A stretch of 64,000 nt of DNA. Source: Candidatus Levybacteria bacterium RIFCSPLOWO2_12_FULL_41_12. GTDB taxonomy: Bacteria; Patescibacteriota; Microgenomatia; Levybacterales; UBA12049. The notes under the pieces are model-generated. The model did not search any database, was not told the origin of the DNA, and saw nothing but the letters and a program-made list of their open reading frames with translations. Made by a program: the position numbers and the translations under genes. Location of the stretch: NCBI GenBank assembly GCA_001784155.1, contig MFPL01000007.1, forward strand, positions 10,101 through 74,100. Direction: 5' to 3'. The stretch's first letter is position 1; each line of letters starts with the position of its first letter. This document shows, in pieces, positions 1-59,227 of the stretch.

Positions 1-1
1 T

Positions 2-946
2 CCAGCACTAACTTTTGTAGCAACGGTGAATGTAGTTATCCAAAATGGACTTAAGCCAGTATTTGTGGATGTAGATCCTGATTTTTTCGAGATAGATCCT
101 GCGAAGATTGAAAAAGCCATAAGTAAGAAAACTAGAGCAATAATCCCTGTTCATATAGGAGGACAACCCTGTGATATGGATCCGATACTTCGAATTGCAA
201 AAAAACACAATCTTAAAATCCTAGAGGATTCATGCGAAACAATGTTTGCTAAATACAAAGGCTCACCAGCCGGTTCTTGGGGAGAGGTTTCGTGTTTTTC
301 CACTTATGTTGCTCATATTCTTATAACAGGAGTTGGAGGATTTGCTACTACCAACGATCCCGAACTTGCCATCCTTATTAAAAGTCTATTTAATCATGGG
401 CGTGACAGTATTTATTTATCAATTGATGATGATAAAGTATCAGACAGAAAAACTCTTTTTAATATCGTAAGCAAGCGTTTTCGATACGAACATATTGGCT
501 ATTCGTATCGAGCTACAGAATTGGAAGCTGCAATCGGATATGGACAACTCAAGCGTTATAAAAATATGATAAAGAAAAGACAAAAAAATGCAACCTATCT
601 CTCGAAGGGACTCAAGGATTTAGACGGATATTTACAGCTGCCCAAAGTGAGAAAAGACACAGAGCACGTATTCATGTTTTACCCGATAGTTGTTAAAAGG
701 GAAGTAGACAGAGATAATCTTGTAAATTTCTTAGAAGAAAATTTAATTGAAACAAGATATCTCTTGCCTCTTTTAAATCAACCAGTCTATAAAAAAATGT
801 TTGGAGACATAGAAAGTAAATACCCTATTTCAAAACACCTTAACCATAAAGCTTTCTATATAGGATGCCACATGAGTCTCGGGAAAAAAGAACTTGATTA
901 CGTAATAAAAAAATTCCATGAATATTTCGAAGCGGATAAAATATGA
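2..946 (+). CDS. DegT/DnrJ/EryC1/StrS-family PLP-dependent sugar aminotransferase (5' truncated by window edge)
   Basis: Frame continues to base 2 with no upstream start (ALTFVATVNVVIQNG...). Family motifs seen: PVFVDVD..F.IDP, GGQPCDMD, CFSTY..H.LITGVGGFATTNDPELA, YRATELEAAIGYGQL. Confidence 0.85.
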   Translation, partial: PALTFVATVNVVIQNGLKPVFVDVDPDFFEIDPAKIEKAISKKTRAIIPVHIGGQPCDMDPILRIAKKHNLKILEDSCETMFAKYKGSPAGSWGEVSCFSTYVAHILITGVGGFATTNDPELAILIKSLFNHGRDSIYLSIDDDKVSDRKTLFNIVSKRFRYEHIGYSYRATELEAAIGYGQLKRYKNMIKKRQKNATYLSKGLKDLDGYLQLPKVRKDTEHVFMFYPIVVKREVDRDNLVNFLEENLIETRYLLPLLNQPVYKKMFGDIESKYPISKHLNHKAFYIGCHMSLGKKELDYVIKKFHEYFEADKI

Positions 947-1824
947 AGAAGGTGCTCTTTACGGGTGCGACAGGACTTTTAGGAAAATATTTCTTAGCCA
1001 ATGTTCCTCCGGGATATGAAGTAATAGGAACCTACAACAGCAACTTGAGGGCAAGAAAAAAGTTCTTTCTTAGACTAGATATTACCAGCAAAAGAAAGAC
1101 GGGACTTTTAATAAAAGGAGTGAAACCGGATATAGTTGTTCATGCAGCGTCAATAGGCAGTGTTGACTATTGTGAACTTCACGAAAAAGAAGCAAATGAG
1201 GTGAACGTAAAGGGGACAATAAACGTTGTAGAAGCGTGCAGGTTGGCGGGGGCAAAGCTAATATTTATCTCATCAAATGCGGTATACGACGGAGAAAACC
1301 CTCCATATTCTGAGGATTCACCCAGAAAGCCTCTTGATGAGTATGGGAGAACTAAAGTTAAAGGGGAGAATATAGTGTCTACTAGTGGGTTGCCTTACAA
1401 TATCGTTCGGTTAATGACAATGTATGGCTGGCCACCCCCGGATGGTAGGGGAAATCCCGTAAGCTGGATGATCGATGAAATTCTCAACAAGAGAAAAATT
1501 AATGTTGTTGACGACATTTACAACAACCACCTTTACGCAGGAAGCGCGTCTGAGGCCTTATGGAGCATCATAGAGAGAGGAAAACCAAATGAGGTATACA
1601 ATGTTTCAGGAAAAGACTGTATAACCAGATTCGAGTTGGCAAAAAAGGTGGCCGATGTTTTCAGCCTTGACTCTTCCCTAATCAATCCGGTAAAAAGCGA
1701 CTTTTTTAAAAATATCGCTCCGCGTCCAAAGAATACGTGTTTTAATACGGAAAAAATAGAAAAAGAATTTAAAATAAGGCCTTTAGGAGTAATCGAGGGA
1801 CTGAGCCTGATGAAGAATGAATAA
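943..1824 (+). CDS. RmlD-like NAD(P)-dependent sugar reductase (dTDP-4-dehydrorhamnose reductase family)
   Basis: N-terminal Rossmann motif VLFTGATGLLG. Length (293 aa) and layout match the RmlD substrate-binding-domain family. ATGA start/stop overlap with the upstream gene. Confidence 0.6.
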   Translation: MKKVLFTGATGLLGKYFLANVPPGYEVIGTYNSNLRARKKFFLRLDITSKRKTGLLIKGVKPDIVVHAASIGSVDYCELHEKEANEVNVKGTINVVEACRLAGAKLIFISSNAVYDGENPPYSEDSPRKPLDEYGRTKVKGENIVSTSGLPYNIVRLMTMYGWPPPDGRGNPVSWMIDEILNKRKINVVDDIYNNHLYAGSASEALWSIIERGKPNEVYNVSGKDCITRFELAKKVADVFSLDSSLINPVKSDFFKNIAPRPKNTCFNTEKIEKEFKIRPLGVIEGLSLMKNE

Positions 1825-2965
1825 TTTTAAAAACCTATCCATTGCAATTGTTACTCACGTTTATGCAACCGGCCCTTCCTTTAAGCTCGAAGAATATCTT
1901 AGAAATAAAGTTGAAAACCTAGTATTTATAGGGCATCCATTTTCTTTTGCTAAAGATACAAGATCATTTATTAGAGTTTACAGAAAAGGAGACTTAGTAA
2001 TCGAAAAAAAATTTATAAAAATGAAGAGATCGGAATTTCTATTCTATGCAAAAGATTTTTTATTGACGATTTATTGGTGTCTTAAGTATTCAAAAAACAC
2101 TCAATATTTTTTCGGAGTTAATAATTTCAATTCTTTTTCAGGGTATATATTAAAAAAATTTGGTAAAGTACAAGACGTAATTTTTTATACAATTGATTAT
2201 GTTCCCAATAGGTTTGATAGCAAAATCATGAATTACATATACCACTGGTTAGACAGATTCGTCATTTCCAAAAGTCTGAAAGTTTGGAATCTGTCCTCTC
2301 AAATGGCAGATGAAAGAGAAAAAAGAGGAGTAAACACAAAATTTAGATCTAAACAGATCGTCGTGCCGATTGGCACAGAGATAAATGCCCCCCCTATGGA
2401 ATTTAACAAGATAGACAAAAATAAAATAGTATTTATGGGACATCTTAGGGAAGGTCAGGGTGTTGAAATGCTTGTTTCGTCAATGAAAGATGTCATCAGA
2501 AAAATTCCAGAAGCTCACCTATTGATTATAGGTGGGGGTCCGCTTGAAAATAAAATTAGATTGAAAATTAATAAGCTCAGGCTTGAAAAAAGCATTAAAC
2601 TATCCGGATTTGTTGAGAAGTTTTCCGAGGTAAGGTATCTTTTGAAAAACGCAGCAGTTGCAGTCGCACCCTATGTAGATGACGAAAAAACATACACTCG
2701 CTATACCGATCCGGGAAAACCTAAAGACTATCTTTCCTGTGGCCTGCCGGTAATAATAACTAAAGTGCCTCAGTTTGCTTTTGTAATTGATGAGAAGAGA
2801 TGCGGCATAGCAATAAGCTATGATCAGAATGAGCTCTCCGAAGCAATAATTAAACTGTCATCTAACAAAAATCTCCTGAAGGAATACAGAACAAACGCAT
2901 TTGAACTGGCAAAAAAGTATACATGGGAGAAAATTTTTAATAAAGCCTTTCAAAATACTTTATGA
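1817..2965 (+). CDS. GT4 (GT-B, group 1) glycosyltransferase
   Basis: C-terminal GT-B donor-binding region (GHLREGQGVEMLV...LIIIGGGP...APYVDDEKTYTRYTDPGKPKDYLSCGLPVII). Paralogous to the minus-strand GT4 at 27838..29031 (YTIDY.P.RF..KI.N.IYH.LDR shared). Confidence 0.75.
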   Translation: MNNFKNLSIAIVTHVYATGPSFKLEEYLRNKVENLVFIGHPFSFAKDTRSFIRVYRKGDLVIEKKFIKMKRSEFLFYAKDFLLTIYWCLKYSKNTQYFFGVNNFNSFSGYILKKFGKVQDVIFYTIDYVPNRFDSKIMNYIYHWLDRFVISKSLKVWNLSSQMADEREKRGVNTKFRSKQIVVPIGTEINAPPMEFNKIDKNKIVFMGHLREGQGVEMLVSSMKDVIRKIPEAHLLIIGGGPLENKIRLKINKLRLEKSIKLSGFVEKFSEVRYLLKNAAVAVAPYVDDEKTYTRYTDPGKPKDYLSCGLPVIITKVPQFAFVIDEKRCGIAISYDQNELSEAIIKLSSNKNLLKEYRTNAFELAKKYTWEKIFNKAFQNTL

Positions 2966-3993
2966 AAAGCCTAGTGTCAGTCCTTATTGTAAACTGGAAT
3001 TCCAAAGAAAATCTAAAGGATTGTTTACAGTCTCTATTTAAAATAGATTACCCAAATTATGAAGTAATTATAGTAGATAACGGCTCAACTGACGACTCTG
3101 TTAGCTGGGTAAAGAAAAATTATCCAGGAGTAATAATTGCAAAGGCAAATAGGAATTTGGGGTTTGCGGGAGGAAATGAGTTTGGTCTTAAGCACTGCCG
3201 GGGAAAATACATTTTATTTCTCAATAACGACACGTTAGTAACTAAAAGTTTTCTAACAGAGCTCGTAAGCTTTATTGAAAAAGACGAAAAACTCGCTGTC
3301 GTACAGCCTGCGATTCTTTTTCATCGTCCAGGAGAGTCACTTCATGGAAAGATAAATTCGGTAGGGAGTTTTATTTTAAATAGTGGATTTCTCTACCACC
3401 TTAACTATGGAAAAGAATTTATTGAAAAAGATTATGGAGAGTCATATGAGATTTATACTGCCTACGGAGCGTGTTTCCTGGCAAATAGAAAACTTGTTAA
3501 TAAGCTTGGACTTTTTGATCCAGAGTACTTTGCTTACTTTGAGGAGACTGATTTCAGTCACAGGGTCTGGCTTTCAGGCCATAAAGTGAAGATTTATACA
3601 AAAGCTGTAATCTACCATAAGGGTGCAAAGACAGCCCAAAAATTACCTAGCTCTTTTATACAGTACCACTCTTTCAAAAATAGACTCTTTACCTACCTAA
3701 AGAATTTCGGTCTGGTAAATATTTATAAAATATTTGTACCGCATCTATTTATTTGCGAGGTATCTTCAGTTCTGTATTTGGCTATGAGGCGACCTGGGTA
3801 TACGTTAGCAATTCAGAAGGCTATTCTCTGGAATATTATTAAGGTGGGGAAACTTCTTCGGGAAAGACGCAAAGTTCAGGAGGAAATCAGAAAAGTAAGA
3901 GATGCGGATTTCATTCCCAAATTGACTAGGAAAGTTAATATTAGGTACTATTATTACTTATCTAGCGGAGAGCTTGAAAAATACAGAGAATGA
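2962..3993 (+). CDS. GT2 (GT-A) glycosyltransferase
   Basis: VSVLIVNWNSKENL...VIIVDNGSTDDS...FLNNDT motif set. C-terminal hydrophobic helix. ATGA overlap with upstream gene. Confidence 0.8.
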   Translation: MKSLVSVLIVNWNSKENLKDCLQSLFKIDYPNYEVIIVDNGSTDDSVSWVKKNYPGVIIAKANRNLGFAGGNEFGLKHCRGKYILFLNNDTLVTKSFLTELVSFIEKDEKLAVVQPAILFHRPGESLHGKINSVGSFILNSGFLYHLNYGKEFIEKDYGESYEIYTAYGACFLANRKLVNKLGLFDPEYFAYFEETDFSHRVWLSGHKVKIYTKAVIYHKGAKTAQKLPSSFIQYHSFKNRLFTYLKNFGLVNIYKIFVPHLFICEVSSVLYLAMRRPGYTLAIQKAILWNIIKVGKLLRERRKVQEEIRKVRDADFIPKLTRKVNIRYYYYLSSGELEKYRE

Positions 3994-6476
3994 ACCTAAT
4001 TAAGAAACCCCTTGTCCTAATCTTCTTGGTTGGACTTTTAGCATGGCTTCCCACGTTATTTTTTTGGTTCTTTAAGGGCTATGAGGCGACGTGGTTATTA
4101 GGAGTTGGCGAGTATAATATCCCTAATTTATTAAAGGGCCATGCCTTCCTCTATTATATTGACTGGAAAATATTTGGATGGAATCCTTGGGGATGGTATC
4201 TCACTAGCATCGTTCTCCATCTTATAGCATCTTTCCTTTTGTTTAAATTTGTGTATTTAGTATCTAAGAATAAACTCCTTTCTCTTATAGCATCTATATT
4301 TTTTGTCGCTAATACCTCGTACAACGATGTCTTAACCTGGGGAAGTTTTAATTCATATTATCCACTCCTTTTAATATTGATGCTGGGATCTTTAATAGCA
4401 TTTGCTAAATATAGGGAAACTAAGAGGAAGATCTTTTTAACTATTTCAACAGTTTTTGCTTTCCTTGGATTCTACACTAGAGAAACGGGGTTAGTCATTG
4501 TGCCAATGCTTACAATATTTGATCTCATATTTTCTAATAATCTTAAAAGCAGACAAACAATAATTGATATTGTCAAAAGACAAACCCCTTTTTACATTGC
4601 TTTCTTAACCTTTTTCGTCATAAGGTCTATTTACGGTGGAACTCCGGGTGATAGCGCAGACAGTAATGTAAAATTACAAATGAGATTCGTTGAGGACGGA
4701 CTTTATTTAGAGTACGCGAAAGCTGTTATTCTAACAATGGGAAAGCTCATCCCTCCCCAAATCATACCTTATCCAGCGTTAAATTTAATTAGAGAGAGTT
4801 TTTCAAAGCTTGGACCCGAAAATACATACTTCTTCCCTGCTCTCGGATGGATAATTTTTGGCGGACTAGGGGCAGTAATGATAAAGTTGAGAAAGTCTAA
4901 CTACGCGAGAATTTTTCTATTTTTTCTATTATGGCTTGGATTATTTTCTGTATTCGTATCATTTGCAGTTCCTAATACTCCTGAAGTGTTAGCTAGAGCA
5001 TATGAGTACAATACGATGCGTTATCGATACTTTGCGTTTCTGGGAACCTCTATTCTCCTCGCGGTGATCTTAGCAGAGATATTCAAGAAGAGAGAAAGAG
5101 CGTTAGTTTTTGTAGCGTCAATTGTAGTAATTTTAAATCTGGTAATGTTATGGAGGATAGAGCAGAAAGTTTACGCGCTTTCCTATAAACCGGCAAAAGA
5201 ATTTAATATGAGATTGAGATCATTTTTTCCCACACTTCCCAAAGAAGCCGTTTTCTACTTATATCCACATTCCTCCGGTTTAGGCGACTATCTCCTGGAA
5301 TGGTACCTGATAAAGGGAGATTCCTATTTAAATCTGATTGGAGAACCATACAGGATAGAATCGCAGATAATTGCAGTGATTGATAAGGTAAAAAAAGGCA
5401 AAATAGAACTGTCTAACGTATTCTTTCTCGATTACAATAGCAGTGGTCTTTTAAATGAAACGGATAAGGTAAGAAGAGAACTTTTAAATCAGAAGAGCTA
5501 TCCGGTAAAACTTAATCGCGCAAGCGAAGCGCTTTATAAAAGCAATTCATTTGAAGGGCCAGTTGTCGACATTCCTTATAATATTGACCTTAGCCTGGGT
5601 ATTTCAGAAAACAGTCAATTTGTTGGAAAATCTTCCGATAGTCTAAAATTTAGAGCTTTGGTAGATTATTCCTCTGATAGGATTAATTACTTGAAAACTG
5701 TTTCCGTTTCTACCGCCTATACTATGTCACAGCGGGAGGGAGAACCGTTTTATCATGTTTTACCAGGGAATTTGATCGATGGCAATACGGGAAATAGATA
5801 CTCTTGGATTGCAGATGCATGGAACCCCTGGATACAGGTAGATCTGGGAGAACAGAGGGAGATTATTGCCGCTACGTGGGGATCAATAGATGGATCTACC
5901 AGAGTGCCAGCAACCTATTCGATATCTGTCTCAAAAGACGGAAGGGAATGGGTAAAAGCAAAAGATGTTAAAAATGCCAATTATGCTAAAAGCATTGATG
6001 TTTTTGATAAGCCGTATATAGCAAGGTTTGTTAGAATGGATATAAACACAACTTCCGGAGGAGACTTCGTAATGCTGGATGAGTTTGAAGTGATTTCCTA
6101 CTCAAGTAAAAATATTCTCTTATACTACAAAGATAGAGATAAACTATTGACTGACTACTACAACATGTTTGACTTTATGGGAGGTCAGGATGATTTATCT
6201 TATTTAAGAGACAAGGGACTAGATACTTATTGGGGCAAGTTGTCCTGGGAGACAAATAAGACAGCGCTGGGGGAAAATGGTCAAGTTTTATATTTTCAGT
6301 ATAATATTAATAATTCATTCCAACAAATAACCTTAGATCTCAATGAAGGAGAAATCTATTCCGGAAGCGGTAATTTTCTTAAAAAATATGTGAAATCAGT
6401 AGTAATAGATTTTGGACGAACCCCTTTTAATTTCTCATTGGATTCTTTACAATTTATACCTAGATTTAAGTTATGA
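3990..6476 (+). CDS. Polytopic GT-C-like membrane glycosyltransferase fused to a C-terminal F5/8 type C (discoidin/CBM32-like) domain
   Basis: About 400 aa of repeated hydrophobic helices (PMT/ArnT/AftD-like). Then an extracytoplasmic ~430 aa region containing NLIDGNTGNRYSWIADAWNPWIQVDLGEQREI..TWGSIDGSTRVPATYSISVSKDGREW, a discoidin signature. Confidence 0.6.
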   Translation: MNLIKKPLVLIFLVGLLAWLPTLFFWFFKGYEATWLLGVGEYNIPNLLKGHAFLYYIDWKIFGWNPWGWYLTSIVLHLIASFLLFKFVYLVSKNKLLSLIASIFFVANTSYNDVLTWGSFNSYYPLLLILMLGSLIAFAKYRETKRKIFLTISTVFAFLGFYTRETGLVIVPMLTIFDLIFSNNLKSRQTIIDIVKRQTPFYIAFLTFFVIRSIYGGTPGDSADSNVKLQMRFVEDGLYLEYAKAVILTMGKLIPPQIIPYPALNLIRESFSKLGPENTYFFPALGWIIFGGLGAVMIKLRKSNYARIFLFFLLWLGLFSVFVSFAVPNTPEVLARAYEYNTMRYRYFAFLGTSILLAVILAEIFKKRERALVFVASIVVILNLVMLWRIEQKVYALSYKPAKEFNMRLRSFFPTLPKEAVFYLYPHSSGLGDYLLEWYLIKGDSYLNLIGEPYRIESQIIAVIDKVKKGKIELSNVFFLDYNSSGLLNETDKVRRELLNQKSYPVKLNRASEALYKSNSFEGPVVDIPYNIDLSLGISENSQFVGKSSDSLKFRALVDYSSDRINYLKTVSVSTAYTMSQREGEPFYHVLPGNLIDGNTGNRYSWIADAWNPWIQVDLGEQREIIAATWGSIDGSTRVPATYSISVSKDGREWVKAKDVKNANYAKSIDVFDKPYIARFVRMDINTTSGGDFVMLDEFEVISYSSKNILLYYKDRDKLLTDYYNMFDFMGGQDDLSYLRDKGLDTYWGKLSWETNKTALGENGQVLYFQYNINNSFQQITLDLNEGEIYSGSGNFLKKYVKSVVIDFGRTPFNFSLDSLQFIPRFKL

Positions 6477-8806: not shown

Positions 8807-9457
8807 TTACCGATCTGAGTTAGATAAATTTTTTATTGGTCTAATAACAAAAATTTGCGTTGAATCGGGAAAATAGAAGACGCCAGGAATAACTTTGCTC
8901 GATAATCCCAAAGATAGAAATAACCTTTCCCATTCTTTTTTTGACCTTGCATAGATCATATCTTTTGGATAGAGAAATTTTTCTATAATATGTCCAAAAA
9001 GAAAAGGCACTCTGTTTGAGGAATCGACCTCCTTTATAATCAACAGTGAATTACCATCAAGCCTTTTTGATATAAAACGAATAATTTTATCCTGGTTTTT
9101 AAAAGAAATGTGATGTAACATATCGATCATAAGGTAACAATTTGCTTTTGGTAAATTTGTTTTGACTACGTCTCCAAATATAAACTTGATGTTCTTTCTT
9201 TTTCTAATACTTTTTACCGCTTGAGAAATCCTATCTTTTGAGAAATCAATGCCGGTCACTTTTCTTTCTTTTGACCCGAGCACTATGTAGTTAGTGAAGC
9301 CGCCATTTCCACAGCCTATATCCAAAACAATCCCTTTTTTGGGAATGATTTTGTCGAGCTTGTCATAAGGCAGAATAACTATTCTTAAAATCGTCCATAA
9401 AGCTTTTAGGATTCCTTGCGGCTTGTAAATGAGGAAAAGAGACCTAAGTTCTCTCAT
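8807..9457 (-). CDS. Class I SAM-dependent methyltransferase
   Basis: VLDIGCGNGGFTNYI motif I on the minus-strand translation. Confidence 0.7.
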   Translation of the reverse strand: MRELRSLFLIYKPQGILKALWTILRIVILPYDKLDKIIPKKGIVLDIGCGNGGFTNYIVLGSKERKVTGIDFSKDRISQAVKSIRKRKNIKFIFGDVVKTNLPKANCYLMIDMLHHISFKNQDKIIRFISKRLDGNSLLIIKEVDSSNRVPFLFGHIIEKFLYPKDMIYARSKKEWERLFLSLGLSSKVIPGVFYFPDSTQIFVIRPIKNLSNSDR

Positions 9458-51969: not shown

Positions 51970-51997
51970 TTGACAATCCAAGAAAAAGTGATATTAT
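51970..51997 (+). promoter_or_regulatory. Sigma70-like promoter (TTGACA-16 nt-TATTAT) ending 10 nt before the ATG of the anomalous ORF (leaderless-type)
   Basis: ttgacaatccaagaaaaagtgatattat. No SD between the -10 element and ATG 52008. Confidence 0.45.
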
Positions 51998-52007: not shown

Positions 52008-53054
52008 ATGGCAGGAGAACGACTAGCAGGAGGTTCCGCAGGAGTAGATGCAAGAGCAGCACAAGGCCCAATTCCTCCAGATTTTGAACAAGCAATAGTA
52101 AAAGTAGATACAGTTCTTGACTTAGTTCAAACACATGTTGTAGGTAAATTTCCAAACGCTACAGTTGACGGTATTGGTTTCGTAGATCCAGATGGGAGTC
52201 TCTGGCATTTATCTCTTCTTCAAAGAAATGCGGCAGGAAGAGTAAGTCTTTTTAACCTGCAAAACCCTAACGAAAGCGATCTGTATGAATCATTTACAAT
52301 AGGGGGTAGGATGTCAGCAAGACCTAGCGCAGTTTCTATGATTACGACAGACCATATTAATCCGCGAAGAGAAAGATGGGACAAGGAAACAGAGTTAGAA
52401 GTTGCTACATTGGCAGAGGCTAGGCTTAGAAGCTTACTAGGTATTCCTCAACCAAAAACAGAAAGACAACTTATTGAGGAAACACTTGAGCATGTCGCAA
52501 TTCATAATATTATAGATCAAGTTGAGCAGCCTCAAACATTCGAACAAGTGTATGCTGACTTAGAAAGTTATTTTTGGCAACAATTGCAACCCCCTACAAA
52601 CAAGTTAGTTGATTATACGCTGGACGAGGGTGCTGAGCTTGACTTGATTTATGATTCTTTTGATTCTGATATATTGAAGCTATTAGAAGGAGAAGATATC
52701 CATATGCCTAGTCCTGAATCTGGAGTTTCGATTCCGGTTCCGGAGCCGGATACTGCATTTATTAGGCTTTCAGATGATGCTCAAGGAAGGGTAATTAGAC
52801 TTGGTTTTACTTTTAAAGGTGAGTCAGAAGGCCAACCTTCTGAAAACTTTGGAATTGAAATAAATTTAGCAGAAGCACATGGAACTGTTGACATTTACGA
52901 ATCGCGTACGTCTCCCGATGGGACGCCTCAAGGAGCAGAAGAAAGAGTGAAGACAGAAAAAGCACAGCCAACCCCAGATCAAATGCGAAATATAGCACGA
53001 ATTCTTGATAAATATTCACACTCTGGCGCGATAACTTATCGGGCTACAAGGTGA
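52008..53054 (+). CDS. Hypothetical acidic, Lys-poor soluble protein of atypical composition (no recognisable domain)
   Basis: 348-aa ORF of higher GC and G/C-rich codon choice. About 3 % Lys versus about 10 % in its neighbours. Asp/Glu-rich. No TM or signal peptide. Has its own promoter and is followed by a 176-bp spacer. Confidence 0.55.
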   Translation: MAGERLAGGSAGVDARAAQGPIPPDFEQAIVKVDTVLDLVQTHVVGKFPNATVDGIGFVDPDGSLWHLSLLQRNAAGRVSLFNLQNPNESDLYESFTIGGRMSARPSAVSMITTDHINPRRERWDKETELEVATLAEARLRSLLGIPQPKTERQLIEETLEHVAIHNIIDQVEQPQTFEQVYADLESYFWQQLQPPTNKLVDYTLDEGAELDLIYDSFDSDILKLLEGEDIHMPSPESGVSIPVPEPDTAFIRLSDDAQGRVIRLGFTFKGESEGQPSENFGIEINLAEAHGTVDIYESRTSPDGTPQGAEERVKTEKAQPTPDQMRNIARILDKYSHSGAITYRATR

Positions 53055-53230: not shown

Positions 53231-54340
53231 ATGTTAATAGGTATTGATGTAAGGCTTTGGTCACAGACCGGAGTAGGAAGATACATAAGAAATCTTGTTT
53301 TAAATTTAGAGACTCTTGATCAGAGGAATAAATACATTCTGTTTGCGATAGAAGAAGATGTAGAAGGTATCAGGAAGGCTCTAGGAAATGACAACTTTAA
53401 AATCGTACCGACTGACGTAAGATGGCATACGCTTTCGGAACAAACTAAATTTAGGAGAATTATTAATAGAGAAAACTTAGATTTAGTGCACTTTCCCTAT
53501 TTTTCCCTTCCTGTTTTTTACCAAGGGTCGTATGTCCTGACTGTCCATGATTTAATCTTAAACCATTTTCCTACAGGTAAGGCTTCCACCAAAAATTTAC
53601 TTTACTATAATTTGAAAAGACGTGCATATCTTTTTGTTATAAAAAGGGCCGCCAGAAATGCGAAGAAGATTATTGCAGTTTCAGCTGCAACCAAGCATGA
53701 GATCGTAGATCATCTCGGCGTAGATGGAAATAAGGTTTCAGTAATTTATGAAGGAGTAGAAGGCTTTGTTATTTCGAAAGAAAATGCGTCAAAGCCTAAA
53801 GATCCCTACGTTTTATATGTGGGAAATGTTTATCCTCACAAAAATAGCGAGAGAATGATTCTAGCGTTTTTAAAAGCAGATAAGCCTCGGGATGCCAAGT
53901 TAATTTTCGTTGGAAAGGAGGATTTTTTCTACGATAATCTAAAACGTAAGGTAGGAAAGCTAGATACAAAAGGTTCTATTAAATTTTACGGCTACGTTGA
54001 TGACGTAAGGCTTGCCTCGCTTTATAAAAACGCAAGCGCTTTGATAACACCATCCCTAATGGAAGGATTTGGGCTGCCTGTTCTTGAGGCAATGGTTAAC
54101 GGCTGTTTGGTGCTCTGCTCAAGCATTCCGTCTTTGCGTGAAATCGCAGGAGCCTCGGCAATCTATTTTGATCCAATGGACATACATGATATGTCTCGGA
54201 AAATTGAATTTGCACTTTCTGGTTCAAATAAAGAAGCGTACGTAAATAAAGGATTAGTAAGATCAAAGAATTTCTCATGGAAAAAAATGGCGAAAGAAAC
54301 ACTTAAAGTTTATGACTCTTCGACAAGCCCAGAGTCATAG
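53231..54340 (+). CDS. GT4 (GT-B) glycosyltransferase
   Basis: MLIGIDVRLWSQTGVGRYIRNL. EGFGLPVLEAMVNGCLVLCSSIPSLREIAG. Confidence 0.8.
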   Translation: MLIGIDVRLWSQTGVGRYIRNLVLNLETLDQRNKYILFAIEEDVEGIRKALGNDNFKIVPTDVRWHTLSEQTKFRRIINRENLDLVHFPYFSLPVFYQGSYVLTVHDLILNHFPTGKASTKNLLYYNLKRRAYLFVIKRAARNAKKIIAVSAATKHEIVDHLGVDGNKVSVIYEGVEGFVISKENASKPKDPYVLYVGNVYPHKNSERMILAFLKADKPRDAKLIFVGKEDFFYDNLKRKVGKLDTKGSIKFYGYVDDVRLASLYKNASALITPSLMEGFGLPVLEAMVNGCLVLCSSIPSLREIAGASAIYFDPMDIHDMSRKIEFALSGSNKEAYVNKGLVRSKNFSWKKMAKETLKVYDSSTSPES

Positions 54341-54356
54341 TGAGTTTATCGAATCT

Positions 54357-55445
54357 ATGAAGGTGGCTTTAGTTTATGATCGTGTTAACAAATGGGGAGG
54401 CGCAGAAAGAGTTCTCTTGGCGCTTCATAAAATGTTCCCCAGGGCTCCGCTTTTTACCTCTGTTTATAACGAGGAAACCGCAGGGTGGGCCGGGATTTTT
54501 GATATAAAAACCTCTTTTCTTCAGTCCTTTCCCCTAGCGCGCAGAAAGCATGAATTATACGCTACTTTTATGCCCCTGGCTTTTGAGTCTTTAAGCTTTG
54601 ATGGATACGATTTGGTAATTTCGCTTTCAAGCGAAGCATCCAAGGGAATAATTACAAAGCCTGGGACTTGCCATATATGCTACTGTCTCACCCCGACTAG
54701 ATATCTTTGGAGCGGATACGGAGACTATTTTAAAAACCCGCTCCTTAGGTTTCTCTCCAAGCCAGCAGTTTCTTACTTAAAGAGCTGGGATTTAGTGGCC
54801 TCTCAAAGGCCTGACTACTACGCCTCAATTTCAAAAGAAGTTGCAGGTAGGGTTAGGAAATATTATGGCAGAGACTCCATTATTATTTATCCGCCTGTTG
54901 CAGGTATTGGAAGAAATGTAAATTCAAAAAAGGAAGATTTCTATCTCCTAGTAAGCAGACCCGTTCCCTATAAGAGAATAGATATTGCTATTGAGGTATT
55001 TAAGAATAATGGGAAAAAATTAAAAATAGTTGGAGCAGGTTTGGGCGAGCGGTTTTTAAAAGGGTCGTTACCAAACAATATAGAAGTTTTAGGAGATGTT
55101 TCAGATGAAGCGCTTTTTGATCTGTATCAACGGGCAAATGCTTTAATTTTTCCCGGAAGGGAAGATTTTGGATTAGTTATGGCAGAGGCCCAGTCTTTTG
55201 GCACTCCGGTAGTGGCTTTTGGAGGAGGGGGTGCGCTTGAGATCATTGAGGAGGGAAGAACTGGAGAGTTTTTTAACAAACACGACAGCTCATCGCTTCA
55301 GGCTACGTTGGAAATGTTTGACAAGAAAAGCTATAATTCAGAATATATAAAGGAAAGAGCTTTAAGGTTTGGTCCCCAAAGGTTTGAGAAAGAGTTCTTA
55401 AATTTTGTGGAAAATAGTTTGAGTGCGTATTCAGAAAAAATATGA
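54357..55445 (+). CDS. GT4 (GT-B) glycosyltransferase
   Basis: MKVALVYDRVNKWGGAERVLLAL N-terminus. Start taken at the internal ATG; the track ORF extends 45 nt further, into the upstream gene. C-terminal GREDFGLVMAEAQSFGTPVVAFGGGGALEII. Confidence 0.75.
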   Translation: MKVALVYDRVNKWGGAERVLLALHKMFPRAPLFTSVYNEETAGWAGIFDIKTSFLQSFPLARRKHELYATFMPLAFESLSFDGYDLVISLSSEASKGIITKPGTCHICYCLTPTRYLWSGYGDYFKNPLLRFLSKPAVSYLKSWDLVASQRPDYYASISKEVAGRVRKYYGRDSIIIYPPVAGIGRNVNSKKEDFYLLVSRPVPYKRIDIAIEVFKNNGKKLKIVGAGLGERFLKGSLPNNIEVLGDVSDEALFDLYQRANALIFPGREDFGLVMAEAQSFGTPVVAFGGGGALEIIEEGRTGEFFNKHDSSSLQATLEMFDKKSYNSEYIKERALRFGPQRFEKEFLNFVENSLSAYSEKI

Positions 55446-56524
55446 AGATCGTAATTTTTGCAGGAGGAGTAGGAACAAGGCTTTGGCCGCTTTCAAGGAA
55501 AAGTACCCCCAAGCAGTTTGAGAAAATAGTAGGAGATAAGTCTACCCTTCAGTTAGCGGTTGACAGACTCAAGCCCAGCATTAAGCCTCGGGACATATAC
55601 ATAGCTACAGGGAAAAAGTACGAAAAAATAGTTCGCGCTCATCTTCCCCAGATTCCTGCGAAAAACTTTATTTTCGAGCCAGAAATGAGAGACGTTGGTC
55701 CTGCGGTAGGAGTTGCTATGGGAATTGTCGGAAAAGACAATCCCAACTCTCCTGTTGCGATTATTTGGAGCGACCATTTTGTCAAGAAGGAAAGAAGATT
55801 TCGGGAGGTTCTGAGCTTTGCAGAAGAACTGGTAATAAAAGACAAAAATTCGCTAGTTTTTATGGGACAGCGCGCCCGTTTTGCAAATCAGAATTTAGGG
55901 TGGATAGAGTTTGCAGAAGAAATTGACGATATTCACGGTACAAAAGTTTTCAGATTCAAGAAGCTTATATACAGGCCAAGTCTGGAGGATGCTGAAAGAT
56001 TTTTAGAAAGTCAGACATATGCCTGGAACCCTGGGTATTTCGTTACAACTCCGCAGTTTCTCCTGTCACAATACGAAAAATTCACTCCCGTACTTTGGAA
56101 AGGAATAATGCAAATCCAAGAAGCAGTAGGGCAGGGAAACTACGAAAAGGTTTTAAAAGAAGTTTATCCGAAATTCGAAAAAATAAGTTTTGACAATGCG
56201 ATTCTTGAGAAAATGGATCCTAGTCAAGTGTCGGTTATTGCTGCGGATTTGGGGTGGAGCGATGTAGGGGCATGGGAAGCTTTGAAGGAAGCTCTTCAGG
56301 TTTCTGAAAAAGAAAACGTTACGAGGGGGAAAGTTCTTCTTGAAGACTCATCTGACAATTTGGTTTTCAATTACACAGACCAGCTGGTGGTAGGCCTAGA
56401 CCTTGAGGAGACAATCGTTATAAATACAGATGACGTTATACTGGTTTGTCCTAAAAAGTCTGTACCAAAGATTAAAAAGTTGGTAGAGAGCCTAACTGGT
56501 ACTCCCCTCGAACATTTAACCTGA
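55442..56524 (+). CDS. manC: Mannose-1-phosphate guanylyltransferase (nucleotidyltransferase domain only)
   Basis: MKIVIFAGGVGTRLWPLSRKSTPKQF typical ManC/CpsB N-terminus. 360 aa, no isomerase domain. Confidence 0.7.
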   Translation: MKIVIFAGGVGTRLWPLSRKSTPKQFEKIVGDKSTLQLAVDRLKPSIKPRDIYIATGKKYEKIVRAHLPQIPAKNFIFEPEMRDVGPAVGVAMGIVGKDNPNSPVAIIWSDHFVKKERRFREVLSFAEELVIKDKNSLVFMGQRARFANQNLGWIEFAEEIDDIHGTKVFRFKKLIYRPSLEDAERFLESQTYAWNPGYFVTTPQFLLSQYEKFTPVLWKGIMQIQEAVGQGNYEKVLKEVYPKFEKISFDNAILEKMDPSQVSVIAADLGWSDVGAWEALKEALQVSEKENVTRGKVLLEDSSDNLVFNYTDQLVVGLDLEETIVINTDDVILVCPKKSVPKIKKLVESLTGTPLEHLT

Positions 56525-56528
56525 AGCT

Positions 56529-57194
56529 ATGCCGTACGTTGAGATAAAAAAAAGCAGGGCTTACGAGTGGATCAAGCGAATTTTGGATATTTCTCTTTCC
56601 GCTTTTCTTTTGCTGCTTTTTCTTCCAATTGTCTTGTGCGTTGCCATAGCTATAAAAATTGATTCAAAGGGCCCGATTCTCGCTGATACTCCCGAGAGAG
56701 TTGGAAAAAACGGAAGTCTTTTTAAAATGTATAAATTCCGCTCGATGGTAGAGAATGCTCATGAGATTCTTCGTGAAAACCCGAAATTTGCGACACTTTA
56801 CAGCGAATATAAAAGGGGAAGTTATAAGCTTAAAGATGATCCAAGGATAACCTGGATGGGGCATTTCATTAGAAAGCACTCGCTTGACGAGGTCCCGCAG
56901 CTCCTGAATATCCTAAAAGGTGAAATGAGTCTCGTTGGACCCAGAGCCTATTATCCTGATGAACTGCGAGAACAGCAAAAGAAATATCCTAACACTAGGG
57001 ACGCTGTAAAAATAGTTTTATCAGTAAGGCCTGGTCTTACAGGGTATTGGCAGGTTTCAGGAAGATCTGAGATCAATTTTGATAAAAGGATTGAAATGGA
57101 CGCTACATATGTAAGGAAGAGATCAATTCTGTACGATCTTCTTATAATCCTTAAAACCCCTTGGGCCATGATCTCAGGTAAAGGCGCCCTCTAG
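56529..57194 (+). CDS. Polyprenyl-phosphate sugar-1-phosphate transferase (PglC/WbaP C-terminal-domain type 'bacterial sugar transferase')
   Basis: One N-terminal TM helix. KGPILADTPERVGKNGSLFKMYKFRSM....DEVPQLLNILKGEMSLVGPRA. Small monotopic PglC-like form. Confidence 0.85.
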   Translation: MPYVEIKKSRAYEWIKRILDISLSAFLLLLFLPIVLCVAIAIKIDSKGPILADTPERVGKNGSLFKMYKFRSMVENAHEILRENPKFATLYSEYKRGSYKLKDDPRITWMGHFIRKHSLDEVPQLLNILKGEMSLVGPRAYYPDELREQQKKYPNTRDAVKIVLSVRPGLTGYWQVSGRSEINFDKRIEMDATYVRKRSILYDLLIILKTPWAMISGKGAL

Positions 57195-57217: not shown

Positions 57218-57247
57218 TTGACACAGCTTTGATTTACCTAGTATCAT
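57218..57247 (+). promoter_or_regulatory. Sigma70-like promoter (TTGACA-18 nt-TATCAT) directly abutting the start codon of the next gene
   Basis: ttgacacagctttgatttacctagtatcat, then atattgATGGATGG. ATG at 57254 is 7 nt after the -10 element, so the transcript is leaderless or near-leaderless. Confidence 0.4.
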
Positions 57248-57250
57248 ATA

Positions 57251-59227
57251 TTGATGGATGGATTTCAAAAAATTGAACTCACTTCGCCTAAGAAGGAAGA
57301 CTCGTTGTCCCCTGAAGATTCAAGCGTAGTTACAAACCCAAACAAGAAAAGCAGGCTTCACTTTTTGAGAGGCAAAAGGTTTAGGATTGGGCTCGTGGTC
57401 TTCATTCTCATATTTTTGATAGGAATTATCCTTCCAGGATTTTTGGCCTACGCCTCTGCTAAAAAGACCTATGCTCAGCTCAACGCTACACTCTATGCTC
57501 TAAAACAGCAAAACATTGAATTGGCATCTACGGAAATGGATAAGACCAGGGAAAGCCTTAAAGACACGCAAAGAAAAGTAAATTTTTTAGTTGTTTTGCG
57601 AGTTATCCCATTTGTTAGCAATTATTATGGTGATGCTCGTCATGCGCTCGTTGCGGGAGAGCATTTTGTAGAAGCCGGAGATATTTTAATTGAATCTATT
57701 AAGCCTTACGCCGATGTCCTGGGTCTTAAAGGTCAGGGAAGTTTTGTAGGAGGGTCTGCCGAACTTCGAATAGAAACAGCTGTAAAAACTATGGATAAGG
57801 TAACACCTAAAATCGATGAGATTGCGGAAGAATTGACTCTTGCAAAAGCGGAAATGGATTACATAGACCCTGATGACTACCCCTCATTTTTGGCTGGGGG
57901 AAAAGTTAAAAAGCAGCTTGCTCAAATGATAAAGCTGACAGATAACGGAGTAACTTTAGTCAATGACGCAAAGCCCCTGATTAAGGTTTTGCCAAGTCTT
58001 CTGGGAGAGCCTGATGAGAAAAAATACCTTATTATTTTCCAAAACGACAAAGAGCTTCGACCTACAGGAGGATTTCTTACGGCATATTCAATTTTTACAC
58101 TTGAGCACGGCCTAATTCATGTTAGCGGCTCAAACAATATTTACACACTTGATGCAACGGTAAGAGAAAAAAAACCTGCTCCTGAGCCTCTGAAGAGCCT
58201 ACTCAAGCAACCCGTTTTAAACATAAGAGACAGTAATCTTTCTCCAGATTTTGTCAAGTCTATGGAAGTTTTTTCAGAAATGTATGAGAATTCCTCAAGC
58301 TTTCAAGAAGTTGACGGAATAATAGCAGTCGATACGCACGCTTTAATAGCAGCAATAAATATTCTAGGAGACATTGAGGTCGATGGAACCCGTTTTACTG
58401 CTAAAACCGATCCAAGATGCGATTGTCCTCAGGCGATTTACCAATTAGAAGCTATCTCAAGCACTCCTATTCAGGCAGATTTTAGGTACGTTGATGTTAA
58501 TGCTGTTAACGCAGCAAGAAAAAATATAATAGGAGACTTGATGTATGCTATTTTAAACAAGGCTTTCTCCTCGTCCCCTAAGATTTACTGGGGTCCTCTT
58601 TTTCAGGAAATGCTGTCCCAGGTAAATGAAAAACACATAATGTTTTATCTTTACAATAAAGAGGCTCAGAAGGGAATCGATACGGTCAACGCCTCTGGTA
58701 GAATTAAGAATTTTGATGGAGACTACCTCCACATAAATGAGGCAAATTTCGGAGGGGCCAAATCAAATCTTTTCGTAACGCAAAAAGTTGAGCAGGAATA
58801 TGCTATCAAAAAAGACAAAACCATAGAAAAAACTCTGACCATAACTTATAAAAATCCTTTCCCTCAATCAGACTGTAATTTGGAAAGAGGAGGGCTTTGT
58901 CTCAACGCACCCCTTAAGGATTGGTACCGCATCTATGTGCCGGAAGGCTCAAGACTCGTTTCGGTTACCGGTTCACAATCCAAAGAAGATCCTTATAAAG
59001 AATTGGGCAAAACCGTTTTTGAAGGATTTTTGGAGATAAGGCCTCAGGGGGCTCGAGTTCTTAAGGTTAAATACGCTCTTCCGTTCAAGGCAGATAAAAA
59101 AAATCCAATCAGGCTTATGATCCAAAAGCAGCCGGGAACCGATGGGGATGAGCACACGATACTACTCAACGGTAGGGAAGTCGAAAAGTTTATTTTGAAA
59201 AGCGACAAAACAATAAGCGTTGAATAG
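57251..59227 (+). CDS. N-terminally membrane-anchored extracytoplasmic hypothetical protein (possibly DUF4012-like, polysaccharide-associated)
   Basis: Single TM (IGLVVFILIFLIGIILPGFLAYA) then about 590 hydrophilic aa. Likely real start is ATG 57254 (MDGFQK). Family assignment is from memory only. Confidence 0.4.
   Translation: MMDGFQKIELTSPKKEDSLSPEDSSVVTNPNKKSRLHFLRGKRFRIGLVVFILIFLIGIILPGFLAYASAKKTYAQLNATLYALKQQNIELASTEMDKTRESLKDTQRKVNFLVVLRVIPFVSNYYGDARHALVAGEHFVEAGDILIESIKPYADVLGLKGQGSFVGGSAELRIETAVKTMDKVTPKIDEIAEELTLAKAEMDYIDPDDYPSFLAGGKVKKQLAQMIKLTDNGVTLVNDAKPLIKVLPSLLGEPDEKKYLIIFQNDKELRPTGGFLTAYSIFTLEHGLIHVSGSNNIYTLDATVREKKPAPEPLKSLLKQPVLNIRDSNLSPDFVKSMEVFSEMYENSSSFQEVDGIIAVDTHALIAAINILGDIEVDGTRFTAKTDPRCDCPQAIYQLEAISSTPIQADFRYVDVNAVNAARKNIIGDLMYAILNKAFSSSPKIYWGPLFQEMLSQVNEKHIMFYLYNKEAQKGIDTVNASGRIKNFDGDYLHINEANFGGAKSNLFVTQKVEQEYAIKKDKTIEKTLTITYKNPFPQSDCNLERGGLCLNAPLKDWYRIYVPEGSRLVSVTGSQSKEDPYKELGKTVFEGFLEIRPQGARVLKVKYALPFKADKKNPIRLMIQKQPGTDGDEHTILLNGREVEKFILKSDKTISVE

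Follow-up and report, generated by a model that had tools for sequence, protein, structure and literature searches.

A large, GT-C-rich native glycan locus in Candidatus Levybacteria with a predicted WaaL/Wzy_C-GT-C fusion protein

We analysed a 64,000-nucleotide stretch (the window) of Candidatus Levybacteria bacterium RIFCSPLOWO2_12_FULL_41_12 (assembly GCA_001784155.1, contig MFPL01000007.1, positions 10,101 to 74,100), and found that positions 1-59227 belong to a native chromosomal glycan locus of this lineage (Microgenomates, candidate phyla radiation (CPR)), which is unusually large and rich in polytopic membrane glycosyltransferases (GTs) of the GT-C type. The most original element of the locus is a conserved fusion of a WaaL-like domain, assigned by predicted structure and orthologs, to a GT-C domain (45214-48402), and it lies in a Microgenomates-wide gene core. 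On balance, we lean slightly towards the reading that this native super-locus would build one or more glycans of the cell envelope along a hybrid route.

Gene content of the window

We defined 54 open reading frames (ORFs) in 1-59227, comprising 51 of at least 150 amino acids (aa) and three small ones in gaps, and scanned them against Pfam and NCBIfam. Glycan-related domains were found in 45 of the 54, GT-family domains among them, which bore out the dense glycan gene content proposed in an earlier note made from the letters alone. The census was as follows.

Leloir GT2: 5
GT4: 6 full, plus one 174-aa GT4 N-terminal half
GT10: 1
Polyprenyl-phosphate glycosyltransferases of GT2 fold: 3
Polytopic GT-C-type proteins: 7 (starts 3990, 13316, 33221, 34897, 38586, 45214, 48435)
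Sugar-nucleotide enzymes: 10 (DegT, six short-chain dehydrogenases/reductases (SDRs), RmlC, two nucleotidyltransferases)
Transketolase-like subunits: 4 (two split pairs)
S-adenosylmethionine (SAM) methyltransferases: 5
Hexapeptide acetyltransferase: 1
PglC-like initiator: 1
DUF4012 protein: 1

Some of the earlier numbers were too high. About 17 Leloir glycosyltransferases had been proposed and we counted 12, plus the half-size GT4; at least 8 GT-C-type membrane proteins had been proposed and we counted 7. The 348-aa ORF at 52008-53054 was rejected as an eighth GT-C, since it has no transmembrane (TM) helix, no family match and no homolog in any of the 80 related loci described below. The five SAM methyltransferases, the hexapeptide acetyltransferase, the DegT-family enzyme and the PglC-like initiator (Bac_transf, 204 bits) were all found as proposed, and the three polyprenyl-phosphate glycosyltransferases were recovered as two firm assignments and one probable one.

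The WaaL-like/GT-C fusion

The following gene encodes the most conserved membrane protein of the locus.

45214-48402 (+): WaaL/Wzy_C-like + GT-C fusion, 1062 aa; N-terminal half ligase/polymerase-like, GT-C from residue ~560

By predicted structure and homology, this protein is a WaaL/Wzy_C-fold ligase or polymerase fused to a GT-C glycosyltransferase. We read it so because its predicted structure matches WaaL, Wzy_C is found on its orthologs, its C-terminal half is of the type seen in the GT-C protein at 3990, and the two halves also exist elsewhere as separate proteins of 450-620 aa. The WaaL/Wzy_C-like domain had been overlooked in the earlier note. The fusion has about 24 hydrophobic segments, and its N-terminal half is predicted to adopt a WaaL-type fold. 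In the comparison table of the fusion with known enzymes, the values were:

WaaL O-antigen ligase: 23.6 (343/403 residues aligned)
ALG12: 12.4
STT3B: 11.4
ArnT: 11.1
PglB: 10.7
Pmt2: 10.4
AftD: 9.7
AftA: 9.6

Pfam Wzy_C (PF04932) was detected in 25 of 34 fusion orthologs at E up to 1 (best 1.6e-6), and two orthologs are named 'O-antigen ligase family protein' by NCBI. By hhalign (98.4%, E 5e-15), residues ~578-926 share homology with the 3990-family TM domain. The residues R236, R433, D463, N464 and N465 of the N-terminal half are invariant in the family, and an invariant pair, D595-D596, follows just after the first helix of the C-terminal half; by its position only, this pair is a candidate for the GT-C acidic pair.

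Relatives of the fusion occur in 574 species-level genomes. We found 313 representatives at the 50%-identity level (E up to 1e-30), and more than 120 clusters at the 90%-identity level match at 56-65% identity over the full length; across orders, the identity is 50-65%. The homologs are named Candidatus Levybacteria, Levyibacteriota, Roizmanbacteria or Gottesmanbacteria. No description of a WaaL-GT-C fusion, or of this locus, was found in our literature searches. Many public records of metagenome-assembled genomes that carry a Levybacteria-type fusion and the syntenic core bear the title 'uncultured Gammaproteobacteria bacterium', clearly either a placeholder or an erroneous label.

The GT-C proteins

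The other six GT-C genes are:

3990-6476 (+): GT-C with an extracytoplasmic carbohydrate-binding module (CBM) of family CBM32 (F5/8 type C); F5_F8_type_C E 2e-15; PMT_2 weak, E 0.013
13316-15979 (+): second GT-C + CBM32 protein; F5_F8_type_C E 1e-15; hhalign to 3990 family 99.7%, E 6e-27
33221-34900 (+): GT-C of 3990 type, without CBM; no Pfam match; at least 7 TM helices; hhalign to 3990 family 98.5%, E 1.6e-15
34897-38271 (+): AftD-like GT-C, 1124 aa; inserted DUF5667 helical domain, C-terminal TM anchor
38586-40505 (+): shorter AftD-like GT-C, 639 aa; hhalign to 34897 family 99.0%, E 5e-18; homolog in 28/36 loci
48435-49874 (+): PMT_2-family GT-C; PF13231 43 bits vs cut-off 26.1; 36/36 loci, 50% identity

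Only the protein at 48435 (PMT_2) scored above the Pfam cut-off, and the large membrane proteins are nearly empty of matches even at E up to 10. The other GT-C assignments were made through homologs, profiles and predicted structures. By BLAST and hhalign, the large membrane proteins fall into two families, the 3990 type (3990, 13316, 33221) and the AftD-like type (34897, 38586).

In the 3990 family, PF13231 (PMT_2) was found on 10 of 68 homologs. The AlphaFold2 (AF2) model of the 3990 protein (pLDDT 88.2) had AftD as its best match in PDB (6w98, E 1.6e-7), followed by STT3 (E 3.4e-6), and its C-terminal part matches CBM32 modules. The proteins 3990, 13316 and 33221 and the C-terminal half of 45214 have 7-12 predicted TM helices each and are tied together by hhalign at 95.6-99.7%. 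Taken together, these profiles and models indicate that all four carry a GT-C fold in their polytopic membrane domain. A near-invariant E32 after TM1 of the 3990 family is a candidate GT-C acidic residue by position only.

For the second family, about 45 of 120 full-length homologs of 34897 (E down to 1e-150) carry PF11847 (GT-C_AftD); 34897 and 38586 themselves match this family at no meaningful E-value. The two best PDB hits of the 34897 family profile were both AftD (6w98 and 6wbx, E 0.004), in three colinear pieces covering the first loop, the middle and the C-terminus. One homolog is named alpha-(1->3)-arabinofuranosyltransferase family protein by NCBI, and 34897 has an invariant G33-H34-D35 right after TM1. 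Among the window ORFs, no DprE1, DprE2 or UbiA-type gene for decaprenyl-phospho-arabinose was detected by Pfam or NCBIfam. The two proteins appear better described as AftD-fold enzymes than as arabinofuranosyltransferases.

Lipid-sugar synthases and the initiator

The genes that would supply lipid-linked sugars are:

8114-8794 (+): short GT2 without TM helix, dolichyl-phosphate mannose (DPM) synthase-like; PF00535; PDB 5mlz E 1.6e-10, residues 4-215
9464-10486 (-): GtrB-type polyprenyl-phosphate glycosyltransferase, two C-terminal TM helices; PDB 5ekp E 4e-77, full length; ArnC E 4e-43
40515-41432 (+): ArnC-type polyprenyl-phosphate glycosyltransferase, two C-terminal TM helices; PDB 9hwj E 3e-44; in 23/36 loci
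56529-57194 (+): PglC-like polyprenyl-phosphate phosphoglycosyl transferase (PGT), initiator; PF02397 204 bits; 34/36 loci, 75% identity
57251-59227 (+): DUF4012 membrane protein, partner gene of the initiator; PF13196 87 bits; 29/36 loci

Both 9464-10486 and 40515-41432 have the architecture of GtrB/ArnC enzymes, a GT2 domain followed by two C-terminal TM helices. The match of the former to GtrB (5ekp) includes both helices, and the latter aligned over its full length, helices included, with ArnC (9hwj) and also with GtrB (E 1e-27). For 40515-41432, the NCBIfam models ArnC (169 bits) and PgfS (140 bits) both remained below their cut-offs, and AglJ also scored. The protein 8114-8794 resembles only the catalytic domain of an archaeal DPM synthase, and it is probably a third polyprenyl-phosphate glycosyltransferase. 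With three candidate lipid-sugar synthases in the same locus, the GT-C proteins would be natural users of polyprenyl-phosphate sugars.

The initiator (221 aa) contains PF02397 over residues 16-215 and a single hydrophobic segment at 24-42, and it matches the catalytic domain of WbaP and of exopolysaccharide (EPS) sugar transferases at ~250 bits. By its domain and membrane topology it is a monotopic PglC-like phosphoglycosyl transferase. The DUF4012 family of its partner is enriched in CPR and Gram-positive bacteria (PMC6744442), and a priming glycosyltransferase likewise adjoins a DUF4012 gene in the EPS locus of Bifidobacterium longum (PMC5412050).

Conservation, layout and native origin

We searched 80 species-level loci around the fusion gene with every protein of the window. 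Full 10-kb flanks are available in 36 of these loci, and they reach only to the window equivalent of ~35 kb. Between 41663 and 56529, each core gene occurs in 34-36 of the 36 loci with median identities of 41-75%, and at least one AftD-type ORF lies upstream of the fusion in 30 of them. In the relative GCA_964491185.1 (~58-60% identity), the left block is kept in the same order, from the GT4 and Wzx genes through the GT2 that follows the 3990-like gene. The middle of its locus differs and is shorter, with ~24 kb from the 3990-like gene to the fusion gene vs 38.7 kb in the window. The locus thus appears to consist of a conserved left block (to ~8.8 kb), a variable middle (~8.8-34.9 kb) and a deeply conserved right core (34.9-59.2 kb), where the variability of the middle rests on this one relative and on strain differences among Rifle contigs. 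The synteny comparison that the earlier note had proposed therefore separated a right core conserved among related Microgenomates from a variable middle.

A horizontally acquired genomic island, or a chimeric assembly, was considered as an alternative. The GC content of the left block and middle (0.36-0.37) is slightly lower than that of the core and flank (0.39-0.40), some assemblies (L007, L008) break inside the variable part, and there are gene differences between strains, such as a PTPS_related gene missing in two of them and the insertion of a gene for a 23S-rRNA intervening-sequence (IVS) protein. This IVS-protein gene (42221-42595) is the sole insertion-like feature of the locus. On the other side, scans of the window for integrases, transposases, tRNAs, Rfam families and long or bounding repeats were all negative, in agreement with the earlier note, and the tetranucleotide profiles correlate at 0.955-0.98 among the parts of the locus and with the recO-dcw flank. 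Synteny of the core extends to 34-36 of the 36 related species. The word 'island' in the earlier note is misleading, since the right 24 kb are a vertically conserved Microgenomates core of near-native composition.

Assembly support came from several sources. Identical window proteins were found on contigs from the Rifle aquifer (GCA_001782595.1 (MFPF01000011.1), GCA_001782735.1, JGI 3300025121 and 3300009031, and ENA 'ANAN16-1' assemblies), and several independent assemblies from NCBI, JGI and ENA, made from many samples, span the window from ~-9 kb to +64 kb except for ~34.3-49.8 kb, disagreeing with it at 0-7 positions per 10-21 kb. Such close agreement rules out a chimeric assembly wherever they provide coverage. 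Acquisition as an island or an assembly artefact is thus largely refuted, and we consider it very improbable.

Edges of the locus

The glycan genes continue for at least 10.8 kb to the left of window base 1, so that the left edge is open, as the earlier note had recognised from the DegT gene cut at base 1. On contig L006, whose 10-kb left flank is identical to the window where the two overlap, this gene is complete (395 aa). From left to right, the flank contains:

Farthest left: MptA/B-family GT-C; by precomputed Pfam only, our own Pfam scan giving no match
~7.3-9 kb left of base 1: PTPS_related membrane protein, 551 aa, after the MptA/B gene
Between the PTPS_related and Wzx-type genes: GT4
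~-6274 to -4991: Polysacc_synt (Wzx-type) flippase; PF01943 42 bits vs cut-off 28; ~14 TM helices
After the Wzx-type gene, in order: RmlC-like, GT2, GT4, PMT_2 GT-C, GT2, DegT (cut at base 1)

Another ~1.7 kb leftwards comes from a short strain-variant contig, which carries the MptA/B gene, a gene for a DUF5667 protein and the galE 3' end. The left end of the locus lies beyond all contigs compared, and its total of at least 70 kb is a lower bound. The PTPS_related gene of L006 is missing in L008 and L010, which are otherwise near-identical strains.

The Wzx-type gene changes part of the earlier picture. That no Wzx, Wzz or ABC exporter is recognisable was right for the window and wrong, with regard to Wzx, for the locus. 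Likewise, the claim that this is not a classical Wzx/Wzy cluster was only half right. The initiator and a Wzy_C-fold protein are encoded in the window and the Wzx-type gene upstream of it, and no Wzz/PCP family match was obtained.

The right edge is, as proposed, a switch to housekeeping genes, namely RecO, glycyl-tRNA synthetase (577 bits vs cut-off 312), an inosine-monophosphate-dehydrogenase-like protein and MsrA, with the dcw cell-division cluster farther right. A recO homolog stands beside the glycan core in 17 of the 36 related loci. The RecO protein of the window (59237-59779, +) has only 180 aa and its RecO_C match ends at profile position 66/157, yet it passes the TIGR00613 cut-off.

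A possible hybrid assembly route

In the hybrid route that we favour, cytoplasmic enzymes would make GDP-mannose and an NDP-6-deoxyhexose of the rhamnose or CDP-hexose type, together with other variants bearing keto, amino, methyl or acetyl groups. The PglC-like transferase would prime polyprenyl phosphate, and about a dozen GT2, GT4 and GT10 enzymes would extend the lipid-linked glycan in the cytoplasm. The polyprenyl-diphosphate-linked glycan would then be flipped, for which the Wzx-type protein encoded 5-6 kb left of the window is the candidate, and the WaaL-like half of the fusion may transfer it en bloc or polymerise it. In parallel, the three GtrB/ArnC/DPM-synthase-like enzymes would make polyprenyl-phosphate monosaccharides, with which the seven GT-C proteins (two AftD-like, three 3990-type, one PMT_2 and one fusion half) may branch or extend the glycan outside the membrane. 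The CBM32 domains may hold the nascent chain, by analogy with what has been proposed for AftD. The right 24 kb (34.9-59.2 kb) would make a glycan common to Microgenomates, and sugars and decorations particular to a species or strain would come from the middle 26 kb. As acceptor, a membrane lipid, peptidoglycan or a protein would be conceivable.

Several observations weigh against this route. We found no genes for a LytR-CpsA-Psr (LCP) ligase, a Wzz/polysaccharide co-polymerase (PCP) protein, a GtrA-type protein or an ABC exporter, which leaves the export and attachment steps incomplete. The ligase call for the N-terminal half of the fusion rests on a predicted structure and on orthologs: Pfam gives no match to the fusion protein of the window even when E-values up to 10 are admitted, and no ligase was retrieved from PDB sequences by profiles of either the entire fusion family or its WaaL-like region. 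In WaaL and PglL, the catalytic residues of the periplasmic loop are an Arg and a His; a stretch picked out by eye as resembling the WaaL motif reads ...GSGYGSVSLAVDNNYLRILGEIGILG and contains no His, which suggests that this residue is missing. RmlC is the sole sugar-nucleotide enzyme that passes a curated NCBIfam equivalog cut-off, so the sugars are unassigned, and the four sugar-nucleotide pathways of the earlier note are not countable. Nine of the 54 ORFs have no demonstrable glycan link (DUF5667, FAD Rossmann, phosphodiesterase, HAD hydrolase, PAPS-reductase-like, 23S-rRNA-IVS, the 348-aa protein and two small membrane ORFs). Finally, the three parts of the locus might serve different glycans rather than one.

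This last point corresponds to a reading in which two or three independent clusters (a Wzx-dependent left part, a variable decoration part and the conserved core) are neighbours, each with its own product. The three blocks differ in their conservation pattern, at least seven strand switches or transcription units are present, and over 50 kb separate the Wzx gene from the gene with the WaaL-like domain; a Wzx homolog lies within 10 kb of the fusion gene in only 1 of the 80 loci (L049). In addition, the only phosphoglycosyl transferase sits in the core, and a second initiator may lie beyond the open left edge. However, there is one initiator and one WaaL/Wzy_C-like gene across ~70 kb, the core has no flippase of its own within the window, and in the nearest relative examined a single contig carries both the left block and the core, with 24 kb between them. 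We regard independent clusters as unlikely.

Protein O-glycosylation was also considered. The O-oligosaccharyltransferases PglL and WsaB belong to the Wzy_C domain family, and protein mannosyltransferases to PMT_2. In a system for S-layer, pilin or other surface proteins, the fusion could act through its WaaL-like half as a PglL/WsaB-like O-oligosaccharyltransferase, and PMT_2-type GT-Cs could glycosylate proteins directly, with lipid-phosphate sugars as donors. The Wzy_C-type domain of the fusion, the scores of the ArnC-like enzyme against PgfS (of the streptococcal Pgf machinery) and AglJ, and the 50-65% identity of the fusion across orders, which fits a conserved acceptor, are all consistent with this. 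The CPR literature also expects glycosylated S-layers or pilins (PMC5220378; PMC11623550). But no S-layer, pilin or other candidate acceptor gene was found in or beside the locus, and AftD-like and MptA/B-like GT-Cs and CBM32 are typical of polysaccharide elongation and not of the modification of proteins. The data do not separate ligase, polymerase and oligosaccharyltransferase activity. A locus devoted mainly to protein glycosylation seems to us rather improbable.

Comparison with known systems

The locus merges the logics of actinobacterial lipomannan/lipoarabinomannan (LM/LAM), Wzx/WaaL and Gtr-type systems and, as a system, is a member of none of them, because the arabinose donor pathway is absent, Wzz and GtrA were not found and the ligase is fused to a GT-C.

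With the actinobacterial LM/LAM and arabinogalactan pathways (AftD, AftA/B, Emb, MptA/MptB, Ppm1-type), it shares serial outer-face GT-Cs and polyprenyl-phosphate donors, AftD-family proteins, carbohydrate-binding modules, an MptA/B-family gene upstream and DPM-synthase/GtrB/ArnC-type synthases alongside. The mycobacterial likeness put forward in the earlier note is thus supported by the AftD-like pair (34897/38586), the AftD match of the 3990 model, the upstream MptA/B gene and the lipid-phosphate-sugar synthases, and fails for the arabinose donor genes. In contrast to these pathways, the locus belongs to a CPR phylum, the window has no DprE1/DprE2, UbiA-type decaprenyl-phosphoribose (DPPR) synthase or Emb homolog, and its sugars appear to be mannose and 6-deoxyhexoses rather than arabinofuranose. 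The actinobacterial pathway uses no PglC-type initiator, Wzx or WaaL-like domain, and this locus has all three.

With Wzx/Wzy/WaaL O-antigen or capsule systems and PglL/WsaB systems, it has in common the initiator, the Leloir GTs, a flippase of the multidrug/oligosaccharidyl-lipid/polysaccharide (MOP) family (outside the window), a Wzy_C/WaaL-fold protein, rml-type sugar genes and methyl- and acetyltransferases. Unlike in those systems, the WaaL-like domain is fused to a GT-C and kept at 50-65% identity across orders, there is no Wzz/PCP match, the lineage is monoderm without lipid A-core, and seven GT-Cs and three lipid-sugar synthases stand in place of the usual single Gtr-type set. Three-component glycosylation systems (GtrA/GtrB/GtrC; GacI-L, PgfS/PgfM; CsbB/YfhO) also combine a GtrB/ArnC-type GT2 with GT-Cs; here, however, no GtrA-type flippase was recognised, the GT-Cs include AftD-like and CBM32-bearing ones, and the scale is far larger. 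The EPS/capsular polysaccharide locus of Bifidobacterium longum 105-A shares the priming transferase beside a DUF4012 gene, but differs in having Wzz and in lacking a GT-C array.

How the CPR cell envelope is organised and assembled has been described as unclear (PMC5220378), and glycosylation in cultivated Saccharibacteria has been called unexplored (PMC11623550). CPR genome papers report ~20 glycosyltransferases per genome, an envelope that is not understood and, only in general terms, 'elaborate cell surfaces' (PMC5220378, PMC8080830). Near-complete contigs of related Levybacteria measure 0.86-0.94 Mb; with a locus of at least 70 kb, ~7-8% of the chromosome may serve surface glycans. The set conserved across hundreds of Microgenomates species, namely the fusion, the AftD-fold pair, PMT_2, the ArnC-like synthase and the PGT-DUF4012 pair, provides a concrete target, and the AftD-fold and MptA/B-type enzymes are extended well outside Actinobacteria. 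In episymbionts, the locus could account for attachment to hosts, escape from phages or differences between strains. More tentatively, and as a possibility that we think less likely than not, Microgenomates may share an undescribed envelope-glycan pathway marked by a bifunctional fusion that would act with two AftD-fold enzymes, one PMT_2 enzyme and one ArnC-type lipid-sugar synthase, and whose core glycan carries the products of a hypervariable 25-40 kb decoration set. If true, it would be the CPR counterpart of actinobacterial lipoglycan/arabinogalactan assembly, and a core plus O-antigen analogue in a monoderm ultra-small bacterium.

Remaining genes of the right core

The window is AT-rich (GC 0.33-0.43), and its genes are tightly packed, mostly on the + strand, with many 4-bp start/stop overlaps as in operons. 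The other genes of the core are:

38249-38599 (+): hydrophobic 116-aa ORF, GC 0.26; no Pfam match; 0/80 related loci; overlaps the ends of both AftD-like genes
41439-41660 (+): 73-aa protein, two TM helices, directly after the ArnC-like gene; no family match; 31/36 loci, 53% identity
41663-42187 (+): stand-alone GT4 N-terminal half (Rossmann), 174 aa; PF13439 E 2e-9; 36/36 loci, median ORF 188 aa
42221-42595 (+): 23S-rRNA-intervening-sequence/four-helix-bundle protein, 124 aa, GC 0.32; PF05635 E 2e-38; bAvd-like E 5e-9
42621-43745 (+): GT4; PF00534 E 9e-40; 36/36 loci, 54% identity
43742-44332 (+): hexapeptide O-acetyltransferase, WcaF-like; PF00132; NCBIfam WcaF 107 bits, below cut-off; 36/36 loci, 64% identity
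44339-45208 (+): GT2; PF00535 E 4e-24; 34/36 loci
49871-51040 (+): GT4; PF13692, PF13439; 36/36 loci
51037-51948 (+): GT2; PF00535 E 1e-30; 34/36 loci
52008-53054 (+): acidic soluble 348-aa protein, strain-specific; no Pfam/NCBIfam match; 0/80 related loci
53231-54340 (+): GT4; PF00534 E 3e-29; 36/36 loci
54312-55445 (+): GT4; PF00534 E 7e-22; 35/36 loci
55442-56524 (+): mannose-1-phosphate guanylyltransferase-like, ManC; TIGR01479 221 bits, below cut-off; PF00483, PF22640; 35/36 loci, 61% identity

The 116-aa ORF is probably not a real gene. The 73-aa protein could work together with the lipid-sugar synthase or form part of a flippase. The GT4 half at 41663-42187 was considered as a pseudogene split by insertion of the IVS-protein gene, and this was rejected because a small stand-alone ORF is kept in all 36 loci; its neighbour is a complete GT4, and the small protein may serve as a subunit for regulation or scaffolding. 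The IVS-protein gene is absent from this junction in L012 and L013, where both flanking core genes adjoin. Homologs were found in 8 of the 80 loci, at the same junction in L071 and L091. This points either to repeated insertion or to a polymorphism of long standing; the gene does not belong to the glycan genes.

The position of the 52008 gene is a variable spot in the core, taken by a SET-domain gene in L012 and by PF06983 (3-dmu-9_3-mt) and DUF1801 genes in L013. A promoter-like site (11/12 match) lies before it at 51970-51997; in the scans, promoter and terminator sites were no more frequent than in shuffled sequence.

Genes of the left block

The remaining genes of the left block (1-8.8 kb) are:

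1-946 (+): DegT/RfbH-type pyridoxal-phosphate-dependent sugar aminotransferase or dehydrase; PF01041 E 2e-78; RfbH 231 bits, below cut-off; full gene 395 aa
943-1824 (+): RmlD-like NDP-4-keto-6-deoxyhexose reductase; PF04321 E 4e-52; TIGR01214 164 bits vs cut-off 224
1817-2965 (+): GT4; PF13692, PF00534; paralog of 27838-29031 (38% identity)
2962-3993 (+): GT2, one C-terminal hydrophobic helix in the TM scan; PF00535 E 2e-29
6473-7447 (+): SDR epimerase/reductase, nearest GDP-fucose synthase; PF01370 E 2e-60; Fcl 217 bits vs cut-off 500
7448-8107 (+): SAM methyltransferase; PF08241 E 1e-17

Genes of the variable middle

The remaining genes of the middle (~8.8-34.9 kb) are:

8807-9457 (-): SAM methyltransferase; PF13847, PF13649
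10416-11171 (-): SAM methyltransferase; PF13847 E 2e-19
11173-11700 (-): transketolase-like subunit, pyrimidine-binding part; PF02779 E 1e-18; NCBIfam below cut-off
11657-12385 (-): transketolase-like subunit, thiamine-diphosphate-binding part; PF00456 E 6e-12
12378-13331 (-): SDR NDP-sugar epimerase/dehydratase; PF01370 E 8e-48; paralog of 18333-19274 (37% identity)
16010-16789 (+): sugar-1-phosphate nucleotidyltransferase, nearest glucose-1-phosphate cytidylyltransferase; TIGR02623 260 bits vs cut-off 300; PF00483
16750-17733 (+): NDP-hexose 4,6-dehydratase (CDP- or dTDP-glucose type); TIGR02622 209 bits, TIGR01181 194 bits, both below cut-off
17714-18265 (+): RmlC-type NDP-4-keto-6-deoxyhexose 3,5-epimerase; TIGR01221 183 bits vs cut-off 155.75; PF00908 E 3e-62
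18333-19274 (+): SDR NDP-sugar epimerase/reductase; PF01370 E 3e-45
19267-20292 (+): GT2; PF00535 E 1.5e-15
20289-20843 (-): membrane-anchored DUF5667 protein; PF18915 E 1e-11; one N-terminal TM helix
20853-22277 (-): FAD/NAD(P) Rossmann-motif oxidoreductase; FAD-binding family match at residues 9-48 only
22420-23247 (+): GT2; PF00535 E 2e-34
23267-24295 (+): GT10 (fucosyltransferase family); PF00852 55 bits vs cut-off 23.9
24292-25146 (+): transketolase-like N-terminal subunit, second pair; PF00456 E 1e-44; NCBIfam transketolase 280 bits, below cut-off
25143-26093 (+): transketolase-like C-terminal subunit, second pair; PF02779, PF02780
26038-27117 (+): SDR NDP-sugar epimerase/dehydratase; PF01370 E 1e-44
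27122-27841 (+): SAM methyltransferase; PF08241 E 3e-10
27838-29031 (-): GT4; PF00534 E 4e-25
29074-30012 (+): SAM methyltransferase; PF08241 E 7e-19
30035-31606 (+): alkaline-phosphatase-superfamily phosphodiesterase, 523 aa; PF01663 E 6e-37; no NCBIfam equivalog
31603-32481 (+): haloacid-dehalogenase (HAD)-type hydrolase; PF00702 E 5e-5; TIGR02253 E 8e-10, below cut-off
32531-33220 (+): phosphoadenosine-phosphosulfate (PAPS)-reductase/CysD-like PP-loop enzyme; PF01507 E 4e-39; CysD subfamily 125 bits, below cut-off

The gene at 20853-22277 had been called a GMC oxidoreductase; we rejected this assignment, because the protein has just an N-terminal FAD Rossmann motif and no GMC family match. 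No NCBIfam equivalog was found for the phosphodiesterase, HAD or PAPS-reductase-like genes (30035-33220), and this trio might install a sulfate- or phosphate-containing substituent. The two transketolase-like pairs may make branched or two-carbon-extended sugars. The first pair (11173-12385, -) lacks the C-terminal domain, and the second is at 24292-26093 (+). In L009, a methyltransferase is altered and there is no gene call where the pyrimidine-binding subunit sits. The true start of the 13316 gene is probably 13352 or 13382; it was called as 865 and 875 aa in L014 and L015.

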